DNA of 45,432 bases. It comes from a virus. Taxonomy: Duplodnaviria > Caudoviricetes. Both the position numbers and the translations under genes were made by a program. Positions within the stretch are counted from its first letter, which is position 1, and every line of letters begins with the position of its first letter. The notes under the pieces were generated by a model, which searched no databases, was not told where the DNA came from, and saw only the letters and a list, made by a program, of their open reading frames with translations. The stretch covers positions 1 to 45,432 of IMG/VR virus record IMGVR_UViG_3300022745_000054; one strand, 5' to 3'. Below, piece after piece: positions 3,054 through 34,308 of the stretch.

Positions 3054-4558
3054 TGGCACCCCGCAAGAAAAGCACGCTGGAGCAGGTGAGTACCCAGCTC
3101 AAAAAGCAGAACATCCGCGCCAAGTACGACGCTGGCGGCATGGGTCGCCGTATGCGTGGCTGGACGCCCCCGTCGAGTGGTCCCAACGTAGCCGTCGAGG
3201 GTTTGCAGACCATCCGCAACCGTTCCCGCGACACCGCACGCAACGACTGGTCGGGTGAGTCGGCTACGACCAAGTGGACAACGAACCTCATCGGTATCGG
3301 TATTCGCCCACGCTTCAAGCGCATCACGAACAAGGCCCGCAAGCAGGAGATCAACGATCTGTTCGATGACTTCGTGCAAGAGTCGGACGCCGATTGTGTT
3401 CTGAACTACTACGGTCAGCAGACCCTGGCTGTGCGCTCCTGGCTGGACTCGGGCGAGGTGTTCATCCGCAAGCGTGCCCGCCGCCTGAACGGTGGCTACC
3501 CTGTGCCGCTGCAAATCCAGCTCATTGAGGCCGACTACGTGCCCATGCTGGACGCCGATACATGGCCTGGAATGCCTACCGGTAACCGCATCCGCAGCGG
3601 TATCGAGCTGGACAAGTTCAACTCCCGCGTTGCGTACTGGGTTTACCGCGCGCACCCCGGCGACCGTGACAAGAATACGGTGATCGACGCGGCACTGCTG
3701 ATTCGCGTTCCCGCTGAGGAAATGCGCCACATGTTCGAGCCGAAGCGCCCGAGCCAGCTTCGCGGTGTGCCCGCCCTGGCTCCGGTGATCACCCGCTTGC
3801 GCAACATTGGCGACTACGATGACTCCGTGCTTGAACGCCAGAAGCTGGCAAATCTGTTCGTGGCCTTCATCACGCGCACGATGCCCGGTGCTGATTCGGA
3901 CTTCAACATCGACCCGCTTACGAACTTGCCTATCGAGTTCGGTGGCGGTGAGCCACTGGCCGGTATGTCGCCAGGGTTGATGCAAGAGCTGGACCCCGGT
4001 CAGGACGTGAAGTTCGCCAACCCGCCCGAGGCTGGCACCACGTATAGCGACTACATGCGGACCCAAAATATGGGCACTGCCGCTGGCGCGAACCTGCCAT
4101 ATGAGATTTTCAGCGGTGATATTGCGAACGTATCTGACCGCACGCTGCGCGTGATCATCCAAGAGTTCCGTCGCTTCGCTGAGCAGCGCCAGTGGCAGAT
4201 CATCATCCCCATGATGTGTCAGCCGGTGGTGACATGGTTTGCCGACGCCGCGCTGCTGGCGGGAAAGATCACCGCCGACGAATATGACTCTGTGCGCCGC
4301 GTCGAGCACGCGCCCCACGGCTGGCAATACATCCACCCGGTACAGGACGTACAGGGCAAGCAGATCGAAGTGCAGGCAGGCTTCCGCAGCCGCTCCAGCG
4401 TCATTGCTGACCGTGGCGATGACCCCGAGGCAGTGGACGATGAACGCAAGGTTGACAAAGAGCGTGAAGACGCACTGGGCCTGACGCCACCGCCCGAACC
4501 AGCGCCCGGTGGTGACCCTAATGCGCCGGCCAAAAAGCCTGATCCGAAAAAACCCTGA
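3053..4558 (+). CDS. portal protein, lambda family
   Basis: 501 aa; YDAG...RSRD..RND, SGIELD, QLRGVP.LAP motifs; position after gpW. Confidence 0.95.
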   Translation: MAPRKKSTLEQVSTQLKKQNIRAKYDAGGMGRRMRGWTPPSSGPNVAVEGLQTIRNRSRDTARNDWSGESATTKWTTNLIGIGIRPRFKRITNKARKQEINDLFDDFVQESDADCVLNYYGQQTLAVRSWLDSGEVFIRKRARRLNGGYPVPLQIQLIEADYVPMLDADTWPGMPTGNRIRSGIELDKFNSRVAYWVYRAHPGDRDKNTVIDAALLIRVPAEEMRHMFEPKRPSQLRGVPALAPVITRLRNIGDYDDSVLERQKLANLFVAFITRTMPGADSDFNIDPLTNLPIEFGGGEPLAGMSPGLMQELDPGQDVKFANPPEAGTTYSDYMRTQNMGTAAGANLPYEIFSGDIANVSDRTLRVIIQEFRRFAEQRQWQIIIPMMCQPVVTWFADAALLAGKITADEYDSVRRVEHAPHGWQYIHPVQDVQGKQIEVQAGFRSRSSVIADRGDDPEAVDDERKVDKEREDALGLTPPPEPAPGGDPNAPAKKPDPKKP

Positions 4559-6927: not shown

Positions 6928-7830
6928 ATGACGATCCTCTCCTTCGTTCTGGGGCGTTTGGTGCCCCGTTACCGTACGGTTAATGAGTGGGCCGTTATCT
7001 ACCGCCAGTTGGTGGATGCACGTCCGATCAGCGCCAAGACAAAGGCCAATCGGCAGGGCGCTCTGGGCCATGTCTTGAACTATATGGGTGGGCGCGCTGT
7101 TTCGTCTGTGCGACCGCATGAGGTGGCTGCGATGGTGCATGATATTGCCAAAACGCACCCGCAGACAGCCAAGCGGGTGCTGTTCGAGGTTGCGGACCTG
7201 TTCAACGAGTGCATGAACTACGGCTGGATCGACCGCAACCCGGCTGCTGGCGTCAAGGCTCCACCGTGCCGTGTGCAGCGCAAACGCCTAACATTGCGCA
7301 ACTGGCAAGACCTCAAAGCTCACGCCGAAGAGAATATGCCACCGTGGGTGGCGCACATGATGACCTTGGCATTGATCACCGGCCAGCGCCGGTCGGACCT
7401 TGTGAAAATGCAGCACGATGATGTGTGGGACGGCCATCTGCACATCGAGCAGGCAAAGACCGGCACCAGACTGGCGTTACCCTTGGAGCTAAAGCTCGAT
7501 GTGCTTGGCCTGACTCTTGCGCAAGCCATCGCGCAATGCAAAAGCACAGACGTGACCAGTCGGTATCTACTGCACAAACACAGCGGCGAACGGTTGGCTG
7601 ATGCCAGCCTGTCTGCAAGATTTGAAGAGGCTCGCAAAGCTGTACTTCCGAGTAGCGGCGGTATACCAGCATCGCTGCATGAATGCCGATCTTTGAGTGA
7701 ACGCCTGTACCGCGCCCAAGGCATCAACACGATGACGCTTCTCGGGCACAAGCATCAGGCGATGACCGACTTGTACAACGATGACCGAGGCTTGACGAAG
7801 GGTAACTGGAAAACACTGTTGCTTGCTTGA
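6928..7830 (+). CDS. tyrosine recombinase, lambda Int-like, apparently without the N-terminal arm-binding domain
   Basis: 300 aa; catalytic set TGQRRSD (R), QAKTG (K), HECR (HxxR), LLGH, LYNDDRG (Y). SLHECRSLSERLY closely resembles lambda Int FHELRSLSARLY. Confidence 0.9.
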   Translation: MTILSFVLGRLVPRYRTVNEWAVIYRQLVDARPISAKTKANRQGALGHVLNYMGGRAVSSVRPHEVAAMVHDIAKTHPQTAKRVLFEVADLFNECMNYGWIDRNPAAGVKAPPCRVQRKRLTLRNWQDLKAHAEENMPPWVAHMMTLALITGQRRSDLVKMQHDDVWDGHLHIEQAKTGTRLALPLELKLDVLGLTLAQAIAQCKSTDVTSRYLLHKHSGERLADASLSARFEEARKAVLPSSGGIPASLHECRSLSERLYRAQGINTMTLLGHKHQAMTDLYNDDRGLTKGNWKTLLLA

Positions 7831-26000: not shown

Positions 26001-27290
26001 GTTAATGGTATCGTATATGCCGGAAGCGCATCTCTATCTGGAGATGATATCGGCAATGGTTCGTCTAATAATGTGTTGTACATAGGTGCATCTGGAAGTA
26101 CATCTCCACCTACTAATTGGATTTCCTACGGTTACATTGATGACTTACGCATCACTAAGGGCGTGGCACGCTACACAAACAACTTCGTGCCACCTTCTTA
26201 CCAGTTTGCTGACACAACCTCACCACAACCCGGTGATGAGGACTACGCCAAGGTTAGCGCACTGCTGAAGATGGACGGTGCGAATACGTCAACAGTATTT
26301 ATAGACTCTGGCCCATTGGCACTTTCAGTGTCAGCCGTTGGAAATGCTCAGATCAGTACTGCGCAGAGTAAGTTCGGTGGCACCAGTGCGTACTTCGATG
26401 GCTCGGGTGACTATCTGACACTGCCAAACAGCAGCGGCCTCCAATTAAATACCTCCGACTTCACTGCTGAGTGCTGGATATATCCAACAGCAGGAGGTGC
26501 ATTTCAGCGGATTCTTTCTTCTACCACAACGGGTTTTATTTCTAGCACTGTTGTAATGCGGATTAACTCCAGCAATGTGTTGTACGCATACGCTGGCGGG
26601 GCATCGGGTATCACTGGTGGGACTGTACCTCTAAATGTATGGTCGCACATAGCAATGGTGCGTGCCTCTGGTGTACTGAGCCTATATCTCAACGGTGTAT
26701 TTCAAGGCTCTGAGTATTCCTCAAACTCCAGTACAGAGTACCTTCAATATATCGGGGGCTACTATTCAACTTTAGGCACTGAATATTTCAATGGCTATAT
26801 TGATGATGTTCGTATCACCAAGGGATTGGCACGTTACACGCAGAACTTCAATCTGCCGACCAACAGCTTCCCACTGGCACCAATAGGCACCTCGTCAACC
26901 ACGATGCTGACCGACAGCGCGGCCACGATCAAACCTCGTAGCGGCCCCATCCTGTTGCCGCAGCAGTTGCCCGGTGCAATGGATGAGGGCGTGTTTGGCA
27001 AAGAGGTCGCATCGGCATACCAGGGCGCTGACATGCAAGACGGCGGCTGGTACAAGATTCAGGGCACCGTGTTCCAGAAGGGCACGCCGAACACTGCTGT
27101 GCATCGCCGTGTCGTGCTGCTGGAGGAACGCAGTGGTCGCGCCATCCGTGAGACATGGAGCGATGCTACTTCGGGCGCGTACAGCTTCAAGAACCTGTCG
27201 CCTGACAACCGCTATACCGTTCTCGCCTATGACCACACTGGCGCATTCCGCGCCGTGATTGCTGACGCACAAGTACCGGAGCCAATGTAA
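23067..27290 (+). CDS. tail fibre/receptor-binding protein with five tandem LamG (concanavalin A-like) domains
   Basis: Five repeats of Y..V.LLL.G.G.NGST....ISTAQSKFG...FDG.GD...FT.E.W...W.H.A..R...GY.DD.RIT.G.ARYT; separate N- and C-terminal domains. Confidence 0.85.
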   Translation: MASGRYWRVVGFMVDGSGALELTRARLWVNGSVSSAAVAASLAPTSGSVADLALASNANIVSWDAATRSQSSFSLSWDLGVAADLVGLELGAGSSQATYPNSLIIQSSVDNLNWNTEQSYNDLKYPGNSAISSFVSSSSGDPDYAKVVLLLHGDGSNGSTTIVDKSQIPKTITTFGNAVISTAQSKFGGSALYFDGSGDYLSVPTSTDFDLGDAYTIEFWIYPNIISSNFGVIHRGFYSTGGGNWTDLAFSIRWLNTFMRFYFYATNNSNEQYIDVSGAVSANTWTHIAMVRNGYSGQVFVNGVSSGTISGLNTPAASSQTLRIGEWDYSASVEYFNGYLDDIRITKGVARYTGAFSVPSAAFPDVATFVAQNNIYSGNVSLLLHGTGADGDKYSADSSFGNKSLTFQGTAQVSTAKSKFGTSSLKLDSGGTAMISVPASLEFGYEGDFTLEAWVNPISWVSSGIIFAVNTTNGIQFGRNADGNLGVAKNGIAWVLTGSALPALDTWSHVAAVRSSGTLTIYLNGASIGSVADTFAYPSGEFDISNPTYSFNGYIDEVRITKGVARYTANFTPATQAFPDPVQQVDQYLSNTVLILNGNGANGSTTILDTCPSPKVITLAGDTKISTAQAKFGPSSIYFDGTGDSLSVAAGPNAGTDVSTADFTVEFRYYTTSASTDQAIFTIGEPEASSGFQLAFGIHHFGSLLAGAVRFFAYNTAGTQYSLDSSPLSANTWYHMALTREGNTLRAFLNGTMFSSMAITGALNISNTCTARVGKYTSSTPRNMVGYLDDFRLTIGKARYTASFTPSASPVPEYAQPNADYNYDSTVLLLHGNGTNGSTTFTDNSGTPKTLTANGSAQLSTAQSRFGASSIYINGSGNYVSVPNSSDFNFGIGEFTIEAWIYVTQAAPAEFFQIVSYGYRNTSVNPGWNLRLGSNAQLVFESVHNGAASASLAVTSVIPLNTWAHVAVSRTKSAVYFAVNGIVYAGSASLSGDDIGNGSSNNVLYIGASGSTSPPTNWISYGYIDDLRITKGVARYTNNFVPPSYQFADTTSPQPGDEDYAKVSALLKMDGANTSTVFIDSGPLALSVSAVGNAQISTAQSKFGGTSAYFDGSGDYLTLPNSSGLQLNTSDFTAECWIYPTAGGAFQRILSSTTTGFISSTVVMRINSSNVLYAYAGGASGITGGTVPLNVWSHIAMVRASGVLSLYLNGVFQGSEYSSNSSTEYLQYIGGYYSTLGTEYFNGYIDDVRITKGLARYTQNFNLPTNSFPLAPIGTSSTTMLTDSAATIKPRSGPILLPQQLPGAMDEGVFGKEVASAYQGADMQDGGWYKIQGTVFQKGTPNTAVHRRVVLLEERSGRAIRETWSDATSGAYSFKNLSPDNRYTVLAYDHTGAFRAVIADAQVPEPM
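24072..26839 (+). repeat. five dispersed ~50-bp direct repeats at the LamG domain ends
   Basis: Approximate consensus GGCTATATTGATGAnnTTCGCATCACyAArGGCGTGGCACGCTACAC at about 24072, 24717, 25422, 26129 and 26787; copy 3 is the most diverged. Confidence 0.75.
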
Positions 27291-27697
27291 TGACAACCCC
27301 TCTCTCGCTGGAAGCACGCCAGCTTCGCCTGACCGCGCTGCGCGATCTGATTGACTCGGGCGGCGGCAAGCTGAAGTTGTACACGGGCACCGCTGTGCCT
27401 GCGACACCCGACACAGCGGCCACCGACACGCTGTTGGGAACCATCGCCCTGGCAGTGCCATCCGGTGCCATTGGCGCGGCGTCAGGCACGGCCACGCTCA
27501 CCCTGACCACCCCACAGGCGACCAACGCATCCAACACTGGCATTGTGGGCTGGGTGCGCTTTTGCAAAGGCAGCGGCGCGGGCGTCATGGACTTGCCAGT
27601 GGTGAAGTCCCCGGCGACCGGCCCGGTCGTGCTCAGCGATACTCAGGTGTACGCGGGCGGCGAGATTCAATTGTTGTCCTGCCTGATCACGGAGTAA
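27290..27697 (+). CDS. minor tail protein
   Basis: GGGKLKLYTGT.PATPD...LLGTI.L...G..GW.R; tightly coupled within the tail operon. Confidence 0.7.
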   Translation: MTTPLSLEARQLRLTALRDLIDSGGGKLKLYTGTAVPATPDTAATDTLLGTIALAVPSGAIGAASGTATLTLTTPQATNASNTGIVGWVRFCKGSGAGVMDLPVVKSPATGPVVLSDTQVYAGGEIQLLSCLITE

Positions 27698-27701
27698 CCC
27701 G

Positions 27702-29651
27702 GTGCCCATCGCAACCCCGAACCTGATACTGGAGGACACCCGGCTATCGGGGTCACCCACGAACATCGTGTTTGGGGACTCTGGCGTCTTCGTGCCGCCC
27801 AGTGTCACCGTTGACATTTCCCTGGCGCTCGACTCGGGCGTAACGGTCGCAGCCTTCATTGGCCCACCGATAAATGTAGACATTTCCCTCGCCCTGGATT
27901 CAGGCGTAACGGTTGCTGCCGAGGTGCGCACACCCGTGGTGGTGGACATGCAGTTCAGCCTGGGCGGCGTCACAGTGGCCGCTGCTGCGTTCTACGACAA
28001 CCGGGTGACCCCATACAAGGACTGTCGCGTGGCATCTCCGCTGGGAAGCGGCACAGCCAGCGAAGCTGACATGGGAACTGATTGGGTCACGGCCAATCGC
28101 TTTGACCTGTACGGTGGTCTTCCGTGGGAGCCATCGGTGCGCAAAGAACAGTACCCGGCGACCGCCCATGAGATTGCCAACAGCACGCGCATGGACAGCA
28201 TGCAGCCCTGGACGCCTGCTGACGGCCAAAGCAATAGCCGCACCGCAGTGCATCAACCCGGCGTCTTCTTCCAAGAGCAGCGCATGCAGGCGTGGGAACT
28301 GGCAGACTTCAGGAAATCGGAGTGGGATACCTCAACGCAAAAAGGTATCTTCAAGCAGATTTTCCAGAAGTCGAGCCACGACACGGCGCGGCCAACTGTG
28401 CTCAACATGGGCGGCAAGGTCGGTGCCAGTGTCCACTTCGCGGGCCTCACGTTCTTCACCGGACCCTGGCAAGTCGCAGGCTGGCCGCTCCCAGGCACAC
28501 ACAGCTACCCCAGCACCCCGCAAGACCCGAAGTGGTGGTGGGATGCAAACCTGCTGTTCGAGTTCCCGCAAGACGGTTCACCGAACCTTGTGTTTGGCGA
28601 CCATTACGTGGCTCCGGGCACACCCGGCCAGTCAATCATTGTTCCTGTTCGGAGCGTTTATATCGTGCTCAATTCCGCATCACTGCGCCGCGTGGACGGC
28701 AACATTTACCTGCCGACCTTCGGCATGTCGCTCAGCCTGGACGCGTCAAGCTGGACATGGGGCTTCACCGCCACGCTACCAGCCAACGCACTGGTCAACC
28801 TTGAGCCTGCGTCAAACGGTGCGCCGGTCGAGGTAGAGGCCCTGATCAACGGCGTGCCGTACCGCGCTCTGGTGGAGGGTCTGAGCCGCGACCGATCGTT
28901 CGGCAAAGACAGCCTGAAGATCACCGGGCGCGGCAAGACGGCGCTGCTGGATGCCCCGTACTCCGTGGTTGGCAACTTCCGAAATACCACCGCGCGCACC
29001 GCTCAGCAACTGGCGAATGATGCGCTTACCGTCAACGGCGTGTCGATGGGGTGGGGCGTCAACTGGGGCCTGACCGACTGGTCTGTACCGGCTAATGTAT
29101 TCAATCACCAGGGCACGTATATCTCTGCGCTCAACGCGATTGCTGGCGCTGCCGGTGGCTATGTGCAGCCGCATGCCACGGCGCAGTCCGTGTCGATCTT
29201 GCCCCGCTACCCAGTCGCGCCTTGGGACTGGGGCACGACCAGCGCCGACTATGTGTTGCCGGTCGATGTGACGACGCAAGAGGGTATTACCTGGGCCACC
29301 AAGCCTGAGTACAACCGCGTGTTCGTGTCGGGCCAGCAGCAAGGCATCCTGGGCCAAGTGACGCGCACAGGCACCGCTGGTGACGTTGTGGCACCCATGA
29401 TCACCGACCCGCTCATCACGCACGCCGACGCGGCACGCCAGCGCGGAACTGCAATCCTGGCTGACACCGGGCGCATCGCAAACGTCAAGCTGCGCCTGCC
29501 GGTGCTGGCTGAAACCGGCATCATCGTCCCTGGCAAGACCGTGCAGTACAACGATGGCGCTGTGACACGCAAGGGCGTGGTGCGCTCTGTCGGCGTGGAC
29601 GTTGGCCTACCTGAAATCTTCCAATCAATCGAGGTTGAAACACATGTCTAA
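27702..29651 (+). CDS. tail protein (hub-like C-terminal half)
   Basis: 649 aa; SLDASSWTWGF.A, ITGRGKTALLDAPY, WGLTDW.VPA, PRYP.APW.W, DPLITH; internal duplication of VDISLALDSGVTVAA. Confidence 0.75.
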   Translation: MPIATPNLILEDTRLSGSPTNIVFGDSGVFVPPSVTVDISLALDSGVTVAAFIGPPINVDISLALDSGVTVAAEVRTPVVVDMQFSLGGVTVAAAAFYDNRVTPYKDCRVASPLGSGTASEADMGTDWVTANRFDLYGGLPWEPSVRKEQYPATAHEIANSTRMDSMQPWTPADGQSNSRTAVHQPGVFFQEQRMQAWELADFRKSEWDTSTQKGIFKQIFQKSSHDTARPTVLNMGGKVGASVHFAGLTFFTGPWQVAGWPLPGTHSYPSTPQDPKWWWDANLLFEFPQDGSPNLVFGDHYVAPGTPGQSIIVPVRSVYIVLNSASLRRVDGNIYLPTFGMSLSLDASSWTWGFTATLPANALVNLEPASNGAPVEVEALINGVPYRALVEGLSRDRSFGKDSLKITGRGKTALLDAPYSVVGNFRNTTARTAQQLANDALTVNGVSMGWGVNWGLTDWSVPANVFNHQGTYISALNAIAGAAGGYVQPHATAQSVSILPRYPVAPWDWGTTSADYVLPVDVTTQEGITWATKPEYNRVFVSGQQQGILGQVTRTGTAGDVVAPMITDPLITHADAARQRGTAILADTGRIANVKLRLPVLAETGIIVPGKTVQYNDGAVTRKGVVRSVGVDVGLPEIFQSIEVETHV

Positions 29652-29865
29652 CCTGTACACGCTATTCAAAGACTTACTGCCGAAGTACCCGCTGATGGTG
29701 GGCACTGTCGCGTCGATTGATAACGGTGTTGCGACCATAACGATTGACGGTGGTGGTGCCATGCAGGCCAGGGGTGATACAACTGTTGGCGCGCGTGTGT
29801 TCTTTCGTGATGGTGTGATCGAAGGCCCTGCGCCTACGCTAACACTGGTTGCTATCGAAATATGA
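29644..29865 (+). CDS. small tail-associated protein, last late gene
   Basis: MSNLY.LF..LLP..PL.VG.V...ARG...VG.RVF.RDGVIEG.AP; ATG 29644 overlaps the previous gene end. Confidence 0.7.
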   Translation: MSNLYTLFKDLLPKYPLMVGTVASIDNGVATITIDGGGAMQARGDTTVGARVFFRDGVIEGPAPTLTLVAIEI

Positions 29866-30346
29866 AACCCTTGTGATACTTCTGCTTTGCAGCGATGTAC
29901 GCTGCGTGAGCATCTTCCGCAGTTTTGAAGTTTCCAAGCTGTAGCAGCTTTCCGTCAACACGTATCTGAGAATAGAACTTACCTGTCTTTTTATGGAAGT
30001 ACGCACCCTTCAGTCCGAGCGCGTTATTACTGGTAAGAACTGATTGGTTCTGCATGTTGGTCGTCTGATCAACGTCACGCAGGTTTTCGATTCGGTTGTC
30101 CAACTTGTCGCCGTTGATGTGATCAATCTGACCTTTAGGCCACGCACCTTTGTCATACAGCCATGCAAGTCTGTGTGCCATGTAATTGGTGCCCAAAATC
30201 TGGATAGTCATGTACCCATAGGCTGTTACACTGCCAATAGTTCGGCGTAGATCAGAGCGATGTGTATAAAACTTTCCTGTATCGTAGTCAAAATGGAGAA
30301 TTGATCTGAGCTGCTTTGCGGTAAGGTTTTCAGATTGCTCGTTCAT
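29852..30346 (-). CDS. free-standing HNH endonuclease with C-terminal AP2 DNA-binding domain
   Basis: YMAHRLAWLY..G.WP..QIDHINGDKLDNRIENLR (HNH) and G.KGAYF.K.TGKF..QIR..GK...LG.F.TAEDAH.AY (AP2); AT-rich. Confidence 0.92.
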   Translation of the reverse strand: MNEQSENLTAKQLRSILHFDYDTGKFYTHRSDLRRTIGSVTAYGYMTIQILGTNYMAHRLAWLYDKGAWPKGQIDHINGDKLDNRIENLRDVDQTTNMQNQSVLTSNNALGLKGAYFHKKTGKFYSQIRVDGKLLQLGNFKTAEDAHAAYIAAKQKYHKGFIFR

Positions 30347-30412: not shown

Positions 30413-30955
30413 TTATGCTTCGAGCGGATTGACACAGCCAATGCAGTTGTTGTGCTGGTAGCCAAGCTCGTACATCACGGGCAGTTTGATGCCAGCGTCC
30501 TTTACGATTGCAAGGCAGTTCGCATGGCTCAGCTTACGGTCCATGAGCGGGGATTCAGCGTCGATATTGTTGGCGTCCAGAAACTTGTCCCAGCGTTCCA
30601 ATTCTTCAGCGCAGTAACCGAATATGTGCTTGTCGGTAGGTTGCTGGAAGTCTTCGCGCACCTTCTTCTTCAGCAACATCGTGCAGGGAGCACCATCGAC
30701 GCCGCTGATATATCGACGACGCTGCATCACGCCCCAAACGCTACCGCCATATTCTTCTGCAACCATATTGGTGATCGGCATTCCGAACCACTTTTCACAG
30801 TCAGCCGCAAAACGGTCATTGTCAGGATGTTCCTCTTTAACAATGCAGCGGGCAATAATCAGTTCAGCGCCTGTGTTCGCATACTGGGCGATTGCCAGTT
30901 TGGTTGCAACAGCACTGGCAGCACCACAGGAGAACCAGCAAATAATGCGATTCAT
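30413..30955 (-). pseudogene. PAPS-reductase-like (PP-loop) phage protein, probably 3'-truncated
   Basis: WFSCGAASAVA PP-loop, EEHPDN.RF, APCT..LKK, FGY, ends GYQHNNCIGCV-NPLEA*. From memory, homologs continue KGG.GYWN for about 70 aa more. Confidence 0.6.
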
Positions 30956-31957: not shown

Positions 31958-32023
31958 TGCTAAATTGCTAAAGAGGTGCTCAGTTTAGCAGATGCAAAAT
32001 AGGTTTAGCAAGAAAATTTAGCA
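31958..32023 (-). promoter_or_regulatory. leftward sigma70-like promoter with five TGCTAAA/TTTAGCA boxes
   Basis: On the - strand TTGCTA-18 nt-TAAACT with TG extension (32011-31982); heptamer copies at 31958, 31966, 31984, 32004 and 32017. Confidence 0.6.
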
Positions 32024-34308
32024 GTCGGGCGCAACTTCATTGCACCCTTGAGCGAGTCCTGAACGCGGGCCTTGGTCTTGATGCGCGGTATGGCACTGGT
32101 CTGTTCAATCGTGTCCTGGGCAACGATGCGGTAGCGGTACACGGCACGATCAAAGCCCGCCTGTATCTGGCGCACCGGGCCGACGCGCTCCACCACCTGT
32201 TCGTCATACTCAAGGTTATAGCCAGTGCTGAAGTCCACACAAATACGGCAGTTCTGTTGCAGGTTGAGGCCATGACCGGCGCTGGCCGGATGCACCACCA
32301 GCATAGGTATGCGGCCTTGCTGGAACTCGACTTCAGCATTGGGCGCGTCAAGCGTCCTGGCCTTGGGAAATGCCTTCAAGATGCGCTCTTTGTCGGGCAC
32401 GAAGTTGTACACCACCAGCAGGGATTCGCCGTTTGTCTCAGCGGAAATCGACTTCAGCGCTTCGATCTTTTCGTCATGGATGGGTGACCACACACCCTTC
32501 TCAGTGAATGCGAAGCCGTTGCCAATTTGCAGGCACTTGTTCAGCGACCCGGTGCTGTCCCAGGCTTCTACGAACGTGCCAGCTTCGATCTCGCTGAACA
32601 GTTGGTCTTCCATTTCCGTGTAGATGCGGCGGGCCTTGGCTGGCAGCTCAATGGGCACATGCGTTTCGATGATCTCGCGCAGATCGAACCAGTCCTTTGG
32701 GTCAATCGTGATCGTGTGGGGGCGAACGCGGTCTTCGATCTGCTTCTGTGCGAACGGCAGCGCCTCAAGCGTCAAGCCGCCGCGATTGTCGGGGCGCGAA
32801 CGGAACCAGCGCTGCTTGAAGTCATCGAACGAATGGCCCAGCGCACTAGGGTCGATAAACCAGTTTTGGCCCCACTGATCGACAAGCCCATTGGGCGCGG
32901 GGCTGCCTGTGAGGTTCAGCCAACGTCGCACCTTTGTGAACGCGACTTTCGCCAGGGCCTTCGCACGCACCGAACCCTGGCCGCGCACAAACTCATTGCC
33001 CCGGCTGCTGGTCATCAACGTGATGCGCAACCCCTTCAGTCTGGTGCAGTTGTGAACAAGTGCGCCGCCTGCAAAGTATTCGTGAGCGTCTTCAACCTCA
33101 ATGTCCCACACAGTTGTTCGACCTGTGCATTCGACACTCGAAACACTTTCCACCCCAATGCGTTCAAGACAAATTCCTTTTTCTCGTCGCGCATCTTCGC
33201 CTTGTCCGACTTGTGAGTTGAACCGTCTATCTCCAGACACTCCATAGTCTCCAGCCATGCAAAGTCCGGCTTGTAGCATGTCGGTATGTCGTTCATTCCC
33301 ATGCCGCGTGTCGCCACTGGGAAGTTCCAAATCCAACCGGGCACAAGATATTCTGCCGCAAGTGCTTCCGAAGCACTCATGCCCCGCCCATTCCCGCCTC
33401 GCTTGCCTTCCGGTATCAAGTCGCGCCCCTTCAGCAAGTTGCTCAGCTTGACCTTTGTTTCCTCGCGCATTGGCACACCCGTATTCCAAGCACCGTTCAC
33501 CTTCTGCCATTCGTTCAGCTTCTTCGCGTAATTGCGAAGTACATCCTTTGGCGCTGAGCCAGTCCACGCCCGAGTTGAGCAACTGCGGCTGCAATACCTC
33601 CCCAACCCATTCACCACCGCAATGCTGCGTGCCATCACAAACATTGTTTTGCAATGCATGCACTGGCGCAAATACATGATCGGCTTGTCCAAGCTCACAG
33701 GCTTCTTTCCAACCACCTTCAACCCGAAAGCGATGGCTTGGTGTGCAGACAATACGTGCTCCGTTGAGCAGTCGAACTTCAACAAGCGAGAGTGTGGTTT
33801 TTTCATATTTGCGTACTACTTTTTTCGGTCCGACCGATGTGAGAACAAGGTCACCGGGTTGCAGTGATTCAATGGGCACAGCGCCTGTTGGTGTTGCCAC
33901 TGGCGTGCCTGCGACAAAACATTCGTCAGCAACAACCATGTCCCACGGCCACAGGTCACCAACGGTTTCGATCAACCATTCGAGGTTGTCGTAGTTGATA
34001 GTGATAATGTCTGCACCGCTCTTGAGTGCTTCAATGCGTTGTGCTGGTGTACCAATTGCGGCGGCAATTGTTAGGTGACCAAATGACTCACGCCACTTGT
34101 TCACCTCTTGAAACCATGTGCCAAGTGCCACGCGTTTAGGTGCAAGCACAAGGCATCGCTTTGCTTCACCAAATAGGCGTAGTGCGTCGTATATAGCAAT
34201 TGACTCAGCACTCTTGCCCATGCCCATGCCAGCCCAGACATTGCACCTTTCGTGCTCCATTACGAAGTCCCCGATTAACTTCTGGTACGGGCGTGGGGAG
34301 AAAATCAT
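32005..34308 (-). CDS. SNF2-type (SF2) helicase precursor containing an intein; 476 aa after splicing
   Basis: PRPYQ, Walker A AGMGMGKS, LAPKRV, VVADE-[intein]-CTRLK, LTGSPAPN, HPASAGHGLNLQ, ERVGPVRQ. Confidence 0.93.
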   Translation of the reverse strand: MIFSPRPYQKLIGDFVMEHERCNVWAGMGMGKSAESIAIYDALRLFGEAKRCLVLAPKRVALGTWFQEVNKWRESFGHLTIAAAIGTPAQRIEALKSGADIITINYDNLEWLIETVGDLWPWDMVVADECFVAGTPVATPTGAVPIESLQPGDLVLTSVGPKKVVRKYEKTTLSLVEVRLLNGARIVCTPSHRFRVEGGWKEACELGQADHVFAPVHALQNNVCDGTQHCGGEWVGEVLQPQLLNSGVDWLSAKGCTSQLREEAERMAEGERCLEYGCANARGNKGQAEQLAEGARLDTGRQARREWAGHECFGSTCGRISCARLDLELPSGDTRHGNERHTDMLQAGLCMAGDYGVSGDRRFNSQVGQGEDARREKGICLERIGVESVSSVECTGRTTVWDIEVEDAHEYFAGGALVHNCTRLKGLRITLMTSSRGNEFVRGQGSVRAKALAKVAFTKVRRWLNLTGSPAPNGLVDQWGQNWFIDPSALGHSFDDFKQRWFRSRPDNRGGLTLEALPFAQKQIEDRVRPHTITIDPKDWFDLREIIETHVPIELPAKARRIYTEMEDQLFSEIEAGTFVEAWDSTGSLNKCLQIGNGFAFTEKGVWSPIHDEKIEALKSISAETNGESLLVVYNFVPDKERILKAFPKARTLDAPNAEVEFQQGRIPMLVVHPASAGHGLNLQQNCRICVDFSTGYNLEYDEQVVERVGPVRQIQAGFDRAVYRYRIVAQDTIEQTSAIPRIKTKARVQDSLKGAMKLRPTAKFSC
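33036..33677 (-). CDS. Vsr/DUF559-like (EDxHD-type) endonuclease overprinted on the intein in the +1 frame
   Basis: CMHC...YCSRSC Zn module, NUMOD3-like WNTGVPMREETKVKLS..LKGR, core SASE...YKPDFAW...LEIDGSTH...RDEKKE..L...GWKVFRVSN. ORF is open from 33806; ATG 33677 (213 aa) is the preferred start. Confidence 0.85.
   Translation of the reverse strand: MYLRQCMHCKTMFVMARSIAVVNGLGRYCSRSCSTRAWTGSAPKDVLRNYAKKLNEWQKVNGAWNTGVPMREETKVKLSNLLKGRDLIPEGKRGGNGRGMSASEALAAEYLVPGWIWNFPVATRGMGMNDIPTCYKPDFAWLETMECLEIDGSTHKSDKAKMRDEKKEFVLNALGWKVFRVSNAQVEQLCGTLRLKTLTNTLQAAHLFTTAPD
33049..33921 (-). mobile_element. class 1 intein (291 aa) in helicase motif II (Walker B)
   Basis: Block A CFVAGTPV...PIESL..GDLV, block B CTPSHRF, WKEACEL, block F VWDIEVEDAHEYFA, block G LVHN followed by Cys+1; residues 130-420 of the precursor. 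Confidence 0.95.

Follow-up and report, generated by a model that had tools for sequence, protein, structure and literature searches.

The window, i.e., the whole stretch of 45,432 nucleotides that was analysed, carries on its minus strand a phage helicase gene whose Walker B motif is divided by a class 1 intein. In the reading frame of the helicase (frame 0) the locus is composed as follows:

32005..34308, minus strand: SNF2-like (SF2) phage DNA helicase precursor, 767 aa (SNF2-rel_dom, phrog_62; collinear with the PCA1 helicase)
33922..34308, minus strand: N-extein, 129 aa, C-terminal end being the Walker B sequence VVADE (ORF and PCA1 comparison)
33049..33921, minus strand: class 1 intein, 291 aa, frame 0 (Pfam, splicing blocks, AlphaFold)
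33661..33921, minus strand: N-terminal splicing region, residues 1-87, with C1 and block B T60-x-x-H63 at 33744..33733
33172..33660, minus strand: frame-0 middle, about residues 88-250, stop-free, unconstrained as protein and predicted to be unfolded
33049..33171, minus strand: C-terminal splicing region with block F VWDIEV at 33111..33094 and block G His-Asn, under constraint in both frames
32005..33048, minus strand: C-extein, 347 aa, first residue Cys+1 (ORF and PCA1 comparison)

The splicing residues C1, T60-x-x-H63, block F VWDIEV, H290-N291 and Cys+1 are present, and the Pfam families Hint_2 and Intein_splicing were found above cut-off within the intein. Its flanks are matched by the intein-less helicase of Curvibacter phage PCA1, with 72% for the N-extein and 58% over a C-terminal alignment which extends slightly into the intein, and the insertion point is precise in comparison with intein-less helicase homologues. 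The ORF, the splicing residues, the Pfam matches and the PCA1 flanks agree with the first-pass annotation, which had described the Walker B motif as split by a 291-aa class 1 intein. The precursor of 767 aa is predicted to be spliced into products of 476 and 291 aa. In the AlphaFold model of frame 0 the pLDDT is 95-98 at residues 1-80 and 251-291 and below 50 across most of residues 92-243; the model resembles intein splicing domains, with the Mtu RecA and gp41-1 inteins at an E-value of about 7e-7. A Hint-only fold is what had been anticipated for this frame. An ESM Atlas search with the frame-0 middle (best score 0.77) was uninformative.

The same DNA is open in the +1 frame from 33815 to the TGA at 33036 and contains there:

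33036..33806, minus strand: +1-frame nuclease gene, 256 aa from the most likely start, stop TGA 33038..33036
33579..33662, minus strand: four-cysteine putative zinc module, CxxC ... CxxxC (conservation, weak Pfam and profile matches)
33432..33488, minus strand: WNxGxPMxEExxxKLS segment, predicted to be helical, similar to NUMOD only by eye
33093..33401, minus strand: Vsr/DUF559 nuclease core with D138, E149, D151, H155 and D164 (numbering from 33677)

DUF559 was matched above cut-off (E 1.1e-6) and was found in all 50 family members compared, and AlphaFold predicts a Vsr-like core for the +1 protein (mean pLDDT 87.7). Structural comparison by VIA gave Z 8.5 for 3hrl (rmsd 2.2, 75 aligned residues), Z 7.8 for Vsr 1cw0 (rmsd 3.8, 98 aligned) and Z 7.6 for 3r3p (rmsd 2.8, 78 aligned), moderate scores which tie with those of nuclease-fold RAP domains; Foldseek returned no match at E 0.001. 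Within 50 sequences D138, E149 and H155 are invariant, while D164 and all four zinc-module cysteines are at least 90% conserved; the Asp-17-His-9-Asp spacing equals that of D196/H213/D222 in I-Bth0305I, and the nuclease motif is intact in 64 of 66 distinct inteins. The zinc module yielded weak zf-FLZ/zf-FCS matches, and its profile resembles eL24/MYM zinc fingers. DUF559 match and predicted fold together confirm, at the level of sequence and model, the earlier assignment of the +1 frame to a Vsr/DUF559 (EDxHD-type) nuclease, here with a zinc module. As to the NUMOD3-like motif proposed along with it, one predicted helix resembles NUMOD3 by eye only, and none of the 50 members had a Pfam NUMOD match at E 0.01.

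An open +1 frame by itself is weak evidence for a gene (P 0.065 given the frame-0 protein), and a 275-codon open +1 stretch also occurs in one of 12 other long genes of the window. Between codons 82 and 255 the intein differs from the related locus L011 at 100, 63 and 47 sites by frame-0 codon position, corresponding to an identity of 30% in frame 0 versus 57% in +1 and to a pN/pS of 1.35 versus 0.40. In a 19-sequence cluster (cluster counts cover related sequences, not independent events) pN/pS was 0.99 in frame 0 and 0.36 in +1, with the relation reversed in the N-terminal splicing region. Synonymous redraws keeping the +1 protein created a mean of 6.9 frame-0 stops and not one of 5000 draws was stop-free; across 66 inteins, 0 stops per intein were observed versus 6.3 expected. 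Two-fold codons able to create a frame-0 stop end in C in 393 of 393 cases, compared with 846 of 1628 elsewhere. Selection in the middle thus acts on the +1 protein, and frame 0 is merely kept stop-free. Both frames being open and the +1 frame being under purifying selection, the initial idea of a dual-coding intein with its nuclease in the +1 frame holds.

This layout, with the nuclease in the +1 frame of an intein and the host frame open, was present in every one of the 80 viral loci retrieved through similarity to the nuclease (L044 lacks the N half at a contig end, and L011 lies on the same contig as L006), and likewise in Pseudomonas phage MR14 and Vibrio phages 1.088.O, 1.194.O and CP-T1. 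Altogether 66 distinct inteins show it; all of them have C1, 63 end in HN and three in SN, and the +1 residue is Cys in 64 and Ser in two. The layout extends over 16 extein clusters, with nuclease identity as low as about 27%. An intein-first search gave the same picture, as 29 of 29 complete Walker-B inteins contained a stop-free +1 nuclease, many of these being re-fetches to a query from the same family. L147 had no intein match, L086 was left out of later counts (intein end mis-called) and L075 of the 65-intein stop-position and codon counts. Homologues of the nuclease numbered 1250 at E 0.001 in the full profile search and two in a word-index protein search; with the nuclease as single query, a scan of viral contigs gave no relative, whereas narrower alignments did succeed. 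From alignment A5, 28 of 38 metagenome and 11 of 16 viral loci were dropped as matching a short helix motif only. The recurrence of the layout in 80 loci and in cultured phages shows that it is not an artefact and not a short-lived intermediate; the intermediate form considered in the first pass does not fit its retention across 16 extein clusters. The host frame is unbroken here and in 80 of 80 loci, unlike in a fractured gene, where a stop and a new start interrupt it around the nuclease gene (Dassa 2009).

Intein-bearing alleles are scattered among empty ones. On the extein tree the presence of the intein requires at least three forced changes and monophyly of the intein-bearing alleles is rejected (p-AU 2e-58); the patchy presence could also reflect repeated loss. 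The splicing domain and its nuclease move as a unit (Mantel r 0.89, n 65). Among 16 natural empty alleles the +1 residue is Ser in 14, Ala in two and Cys in none, so the cleavage substrate suggested earlier, with Cys at +1, is unsupported. An unrooted, weakly supported nuclease-core tree did not order the in-frame and +1 forms; it gave two changes and is compatible with a single origin.

For the start of the nuclease three codons come into question:

33804..33826, minus strand: candidate start 1, ATG 33806, A-rich, unstructured and without Shine-Dalgarno match, just after the conserved +1 stop TAG 33818..33816
33750..33770, minus strand: candidate start 2, TTG 33752, with GGAG 6 nt upstream
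33675..33677, minus strand: ATG 33677, the start proposed earlier, present, unconserved and with a weak Shine-Dalgarno match

ATG 33677 is CTC in the closest homologue, and no Met occurs at this place in L006/L011, L012, P0002 and P0004. As it is missing from the four closest homologues, ATG 33806 or TTG 33752 is the likelier start; ATG 33806 is our tentative choice, TTG 33752 is possible at a clearly lower probability and ATG 33677 is doubtful. The GGAG of TTG 33752 lies partly inside a 5-bp hairpin (33770..33757), which does not exceed chance level and does not occur in L011. Third-position (frame-0) differences drop from 18 of 30 in codons 1-30 to 6 of 30 in codons 41-70 (P 0.003) and 12 of 40 in codons 41-80 (P 0.016), a start inference from one sequence pair with codon windows picked after looking.

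In the largest cluster each of the 28 distinct segments carries a start at intein codon 51 or 53, in most cases preceded by GAGGT. CTT is the codon for Leu51 in 21 of 22 cases, compared with a CTT share of 11% in the exteins, and ATG 53 is present in all six segments without start 51 versus two of the 22 others. In L004, L073, L098, L074 and L099 a start follows within 1-3 codons after the upstream +1 stop. Because these start signals are conserved and compensate for each other, we infer internal initiation, and the nuclease is likely to be made separately from the spliced precursor, as originally assumed. The GAGGT/TTG51/ATG53 signal of this cluster is not present in the copy studied here. 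Between 33500 and 34400 a sigma-70 promoter scan gave no sites and two hairpins were found, at chance level; Rfam had no matches across the whole window. The first-pass annotation had also drawn attention to the TGA formed by extein codons. The nuclease ORF runs past the splice junction in eight of 65 distinct inteins and stops inside the intein in the other 57, so this run is incidental.

A real nuclease might also be produced by programmed +1 ribosomal frameshifting in the N-terminal splicing region, as a fusion of N-extein, N-terminal intein part and nuclease. Most genes of this phage have a Shine-Dalgarno match and the best nuclease ATG has none; neither ATG 33806 nor ATG 33677 has a strong one, A-runs lie near codons 35-41 with +1 constraint beginning near codon 41, and L075 has no start codon before the first CxxC, all of which would suit a frameshift. 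However, the A-run after ATG 33806 differs in L011 (GAA AAA ACC versus GAA AAA TCC), no slippery site common to the lineages was seen by eye, and the position of the last upstream +1 stop varies between codons 17 and 111 in distinct inteins. The conserved, mutually compensating start codons also speak for initiation, as does a start before the first CxxC in 65 of 66 distinct inteins, which long windows make easy. Frameshifting is therefore considered improbable. Still less probable is that the +1 gene descends from a free-standing nuclease which inserted into a mini-intein, is now decaying and has lost homing: pseudogenisation is named as one fate by Gosselin et al. (bioRxiv 10.1101/2025.01.02.630785), but the purifying selection in +1, the motif integrity and the stop-free +1 nucleases of all 29 complete Walker-B inteins, retrieved with a query of the same family, oppose it.

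A frameshift introduced by assembly or sequencing has a negligible probability, as does an overlap by chance. Genes with an open +1 frame are not rare in this genome, but the whole middle can be read without a stop in either frame, which implies no indel, and the layout is the same in cultured phages. In the likely source run the locus is covered throughout and shows no difference, no indel was detected in contigs of four runs, and two other studies contain identical pieces across both junctions; the assembly error named beforehand as a refutation thus has no counterpart in the contigs of three studies covering the region. Run X4, with a word share of 0.09, adds nothing. No empty allele or joint skipping the intein was found in the four runs examined; an apparent empty allele in runs X2 and X3 (about half the words) turned out to be low-depth pieces of the intein-bearing allele.

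Out-of-frame intein nucleases are an already published kind (Gosselin 2025; Phillips 2026), and the first-pass mention of such cases in actinobacteriophages proved right. Gosselin, Arsenault and Gogarten (bioRxiv 10.1101/2025.01.02.630785) describe non-canonical inteins with the nuclease in a separate overlapping ORF; like ours, these are contiguous and patchily distributed, with an unstructured in-frame middle, and they include Vsr-like/EDxHD nucleases and a same-strand out-of-frame class. In the accessible text the Vsr-like nucleases are antisense, the same-strand class has an endonuclease VII-like nuclease in frame 3, and the hosts are DNA polymerase, minor capsid, terminase and thymidylate synthase genes instead of the Walker B motif of an SF2 helicase. 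The layouts are called rare there, with ORFs usually avoiding the splicing domain, whereas here the layout is common and the Vsr nuclease, in the same-strand +1 frame, extends over blocks B, F and G. The cyanobacterial dnaX intein of Phillips, DeSimone and Gogarten (bioRxiv 10.64898/2026.09.14.751524), according to its accessible sections, shares the same-strand overlap, contiguous intein, frame-dependent dN/dS, sporadic distribution and a putative Shine-Dalgarno site, but has a LAGLIDADG nuclease in a ‘+2 ORF’ of a chromosomal clamp-loader gene.

EDxHD (Vsr-like) homing endonucleases are represented by I-Bth0305I (Dassa 2009, PMC2677866; Taylor 2011, PMC3239194), described as a dimer that cuts alleles lacking the insertion, adjacent to the insertion site. 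The +1 nuclease resembles it in the C-terminal Vsr-like core, the Asp-His-Asp spacing and N-terminal putative DNA-binding modules; a further parallel is found in fractured genes, where the nuclease 3′ end overlaps the C-terminal intein part by 6-69 bp (Dassa 2009). Similarity to 3r3p is remote (profile E 0.0094). By these accounts EDxHD genes carry NUMOD repeats and occur as independent genes, either between the two halves of a split intein or within a group I intron; in our case the host frame is open and the N-terminus has a four-Cys module. The ShiLan insertion in phage methylases (Arsenault 2025, PMC11855218) is likewise a stop-free in-frame insert hiding an out-of-frame zinc-finger nuclease with a proposed internal/leaderless start, but it lacks a splicing domain and its nuclease is of the HNH type, in frame 3. 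Searches of open-access PMC/bioRxiv showed no helicase intein with a Vsr nuclease on the same strand, and subscription papers or supplements may list cases; none of 15 papers matched in one of these searches mentions CP-T1, and PMC9403480, which covers ‘intein’ and ‘DUF559’, describes no frame shift in the passages concerned.

We consider it highly probable that the locus combines a self-splicing intein with a separately translated +1 homing nuclease of Vsr/EDxHD type. The contiguous class 1 intein of the helicase would splice out, with the unfolded middle looping out of the Hint fold, and the +1 gene in the same DNA would be translated from an internal start. The nuclease would likely cut intein-less helicase alleles near the Walker B codons, whereby the intein is copied in, a mode of homing to which the scattered alleles and the conserved layout correspond. 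A broader proposal, to which we give slightly less than an even chance, is that overprinting is a stable and widespread phage-intein design, that in this helicase family splicing-domain codons were recruited as ribosome binding site and start of the nuclease, and that in-frame Vsr inteins of UvrD-type helicases are frame-changed relatives. If true, the latter would represent the frame transition proposed by Gosselin et al., and many long phage inteins seemingly without nuclease would hide one in another frame.

As gene callers see only the helicase, the nuclease is unannotated even in cultured phages, namely MR14, CP-T1 and the Nahant Vibrio phages, and inteins of this type would wrongly be classed as degenerate. 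With its dozens of natural replicates, the family bears on how nested homing nucleases get translated, on how some 170 codons can remain free of stops in both frames and on whether in-frame intein nucleases derive from out-of-frame ones. It may also serve as a source of EDxHD-type nucleases with a predictable target region.

The nuclease and its host helicase occupy the following positions in the window, a tailed-phage record of 45,432 bases:

34308..32005, minus strand: helicase precursor, an SNF2-like open reading frame of 767 aa
33921..33049, minus strand: class 1 intein of 291 aa, which splits the helicase Walker B motif after VVADE
33815 to 33036, minus strand: open frame in +1 to the helicase frame (frame 0), with a four-cysteine module, a predicted helix and a DUF559/Vsr core
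33048..33046: Cys codon of the first C-extein residue, compared with loci L149-L163 and L005

The class 1 intein of the first-pass annotation was confirmed: sequence inspection and domain search revealed all class 1 splicing residues in the 291-aa insert, and AlphaFold modelled, as had been expected, a confident Hint domain from intein residues 1-87 and 251-291; the frame-0 stretch between them received no confident structure. Of the 1580 named phage records matching the helicase, that of Curvibacter phage PCA1 held the closest match, an intein-less enzyme of 478 aa, which hints at a host within the Comamonadaceae. The cysteine module claimed for the +1 frame is present, and the Vsr/DUF559 core is supported by a domain match, a structural model and the catalytic spacing: Asp138, His155 and Asp164 (numbered from ATG 33677) are spaced as D196, H213 and D222 of I-Bth0305I. 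Structural matches were moderate (Z 7.6-8.5), and Foldseek returned nothing at E 0.001. An assembly frameshift as the origin of the second frame found no support, as no indel at the locus appeared in contigs of the likely source run or of two further studies.

Selection on the two frames was compared with the closest relative, L011 (the same contig as L006), whose 291-aa intein occupies the same site and aligns without gaps. Within intein codons 82-255 the differences numbered 100, 63 and 47 at the first, second and third frame-0 codon positions, identity was 30% in frame 0 vs 57% in +1, and pN/pS was 1.35 vs 0.40, so that constraint in the intein middle lies on the +1 frame. Codons 1-38 followed the ordinary pattern (frame-0 pN/pS 0.23), and blocks F/G showed constraint on both frames. 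The middle of nineteen 289-aa inteins of another cluster gave 0.99 in frame 0 vs 0.36 in +1. In the intein middle, frame 0 is simply maintained open. When the window +1 protein was recoded with random synonymous codons, 6.9 frame-0 stops arose on average and none of 5000 draws was stop-free; for 66 relatives 6.3 stops were expected on average and none was observed. Two-fold +1 codons able to make a frame-0 stop ended in C in 393/393 cases, compared with 846/1628 other two-fold codons. The only invariant frame-0 residues of the middle in a 38-sequence alignment, Leu216-Gln217, overlie a +1 Tyr-Lys motif in which TAC encodes the Tyr in 62/62 cases.

Each of the 28 distinct segments in the largest cluster offers a +1 start, either at intein codon 51 or at codon 53. 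There, the frame-0 codons for Glu-Val form a GAGGT (GAG in 23/24), and Leu51 is CTT in 21/22, the CTT share in exteins being 11%. ATG 53 occurred in all six segments lacking start 51 vs 2/22 others (Fisher 7e-5, which overstates independence because these sequences are related). An ATG situated 2-5 codons upstream of the first CxxC follows a GAGGT-type site in CP-T1 and MR14, among others, and at several loci a start follows a +1 stop by 1-3 codons. These codon 51/53 starts, GAGGT-type sites and starts shortly after +1 stops favour translation of the nuclease by internal initiation, with starts probably differing between lineages. The window copy carries no codon 51/53 start signal, and ATG 33677, initially taken as its start, is a less likely one: L011 has CTC there, the relatives L012, P0002 and P0004 also lack Met, and all four possess a Met at codon 37-39. 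Candidate starts are ATG 33806 and TTG 33752. The former lies shortly behind a conserved +1 stop in A-rich surroundings, is the only one of the gene's 39 ATGs without predicted local structure and is followed by a drop in frame-0 wobble variation; no Shine-Dalgarno match was detected at it. The latter has GGAG at 6 nt, the arrangement of most genes in this phage, and recurs behind a weaker site in L011 and L012. A +1 frameshift producing the window nuclease is improbable beside internal initiation.

Distribution of the intein is patchy: 15 of 16 loci fetched by C-extein were empty at the insertion site, and the extein tree requires at least three changes in intein presence. Grouping seven intein-bearing exteins together (p-AU 2e-58) or the three with the closest nucleases (p-AU 3e-4) was rejected, the groups having been named after a first tree was viewed. 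Repeated loss could also explain this patchiness. Distances of splicing domain and nuclease correlate (r 0.89), so both travel as a unit. The first C-extein residue is Ser (14) or Ala (2) in empty alleles vs Cys in 64/66 occupied ones; the Cys codon thus seems to be converted, travelling with the intein, and the Cys-containing cleavage substrate suggested earlier is probably not the natural target.

A nuclease profile gave at least 349 matches in viral contigs, of which the best 80, picked by nuclease similarity and not by an open host frame, were fetched. All 80 encode the nuclease in the +1 frame of an intein with the host frame open, one being truncated at the contig end. Pooling these with the window and with three phages of known name gave 83 loci, which comprised 60 distinct inteins over 16 extein clusters (35% identity), 58 inserted at DE/C of Walker B and two a few residues downstream. 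Pseudomonas phage MR14 and Vibrio phages 1.088.O, 1.194.O and CP-T1 share the layout, and their records annotate the host gene alone. The nuclease core was present at 10/38 metagenome loci, all ten with the layout (one being the window itself), and two of three genome loci had it. C-terminal tails compatible with a +1 reading of block F were found in 86/141 homologues (+2 reading 2, shuffles 6.3), omitting five rows without parsable tail and four long ones. An intein-first search (66 rows without duplicates) detected a stop-free +1 nuclease in 29/29 complete Walker-B inteins whose middle is long, many of these being re-fetched loci.

Four long UvrD-type helicases (P0065, P0077, P0138, P0152) carry the same Vsr core in frame in a Walker B intein lacking the cysteine module, and P0126 is a fragment resembling them; the in-frame forms fall among the +1 forms in a weak, unrooted nuclease tree. 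L146, a Methylococcaceae MAG contig, shows the layout within a helicase-like ORF of very large size, at a shifted site, DEGH/C, shared with L067. Mini-inteins of 124-151 aa were seen in L199, L202, L204, L235 and L243, the last near the Walker B insertion point (DESH/C), and the L075 helicase has a second, short intein upstream (1444-1848). Related phage inteins at other sites contain out-of-frame HNH nucleases with zinc-finger modules, in +2 (L187, L197, L203, L208, L209, L211, L212, L214, L215, L217, L219, L221, L233, L234, L240) or +1 (L229, L230, L237, L239); all 19 long out-of-frame ORFs tested matched HNH or HNH_3. A family A DNA polymerase intein (L007:3001-3858 and 3182-3811) has an HNH_3 ORF in +1.

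Elsewhere in the window, a PAPS-reductase-like gene (30955..30413, minus strand) covers profile positions 162-342 of 460 and ends five codons past HNNCIGCV, directly followed 3' by an HNH-AP2 endonuclease gene (30346..29852, minus strand). Inspection by eye revealed no 3' part and Rfam no intron, so it may have been shortened by nuclease insertion. A tyrosine-integrase-like gene (6928..7830, plus strand) lies between portal region and lysis genes on the structural-gene strand, and the tail gene 27702..29651 (stretch 26895..29423) has unusually long open +1 (275 codons) and +2 (188 codons) frames.

The nuclease family was defined by Dassa 2009 (PMC2677866) and Taylor 2011 (PMC3239194). Gosselin et al. 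(10.1101/2025.01.02.630785) describe contiguous inteins with LAGLIDADG or Vsr-like nucleases on the antisense strand, or with endonuclease VII-like ones in frame 3 of the same strand, and suggest that an ORF on the same strand might move into frame; their Vsr-like nucleases are antisense, whereas that of the window is same-strand +1. Phillips et al. (10.64898/2026.09.14.751524) present a LAGLIDADG ORF on the same strand as the dnaX intein that contains it, with dN/dS compared by frame. The design principle is thus already published. Open-access literature and the main text of preprints yielded no same-strand Vsr form in a helicase intein, and the combination of Vsr nuclease, +1 frame and helicase host, plus its scale, appears unpublished. 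The dual-coding intein layout is real, under selection and widespread.
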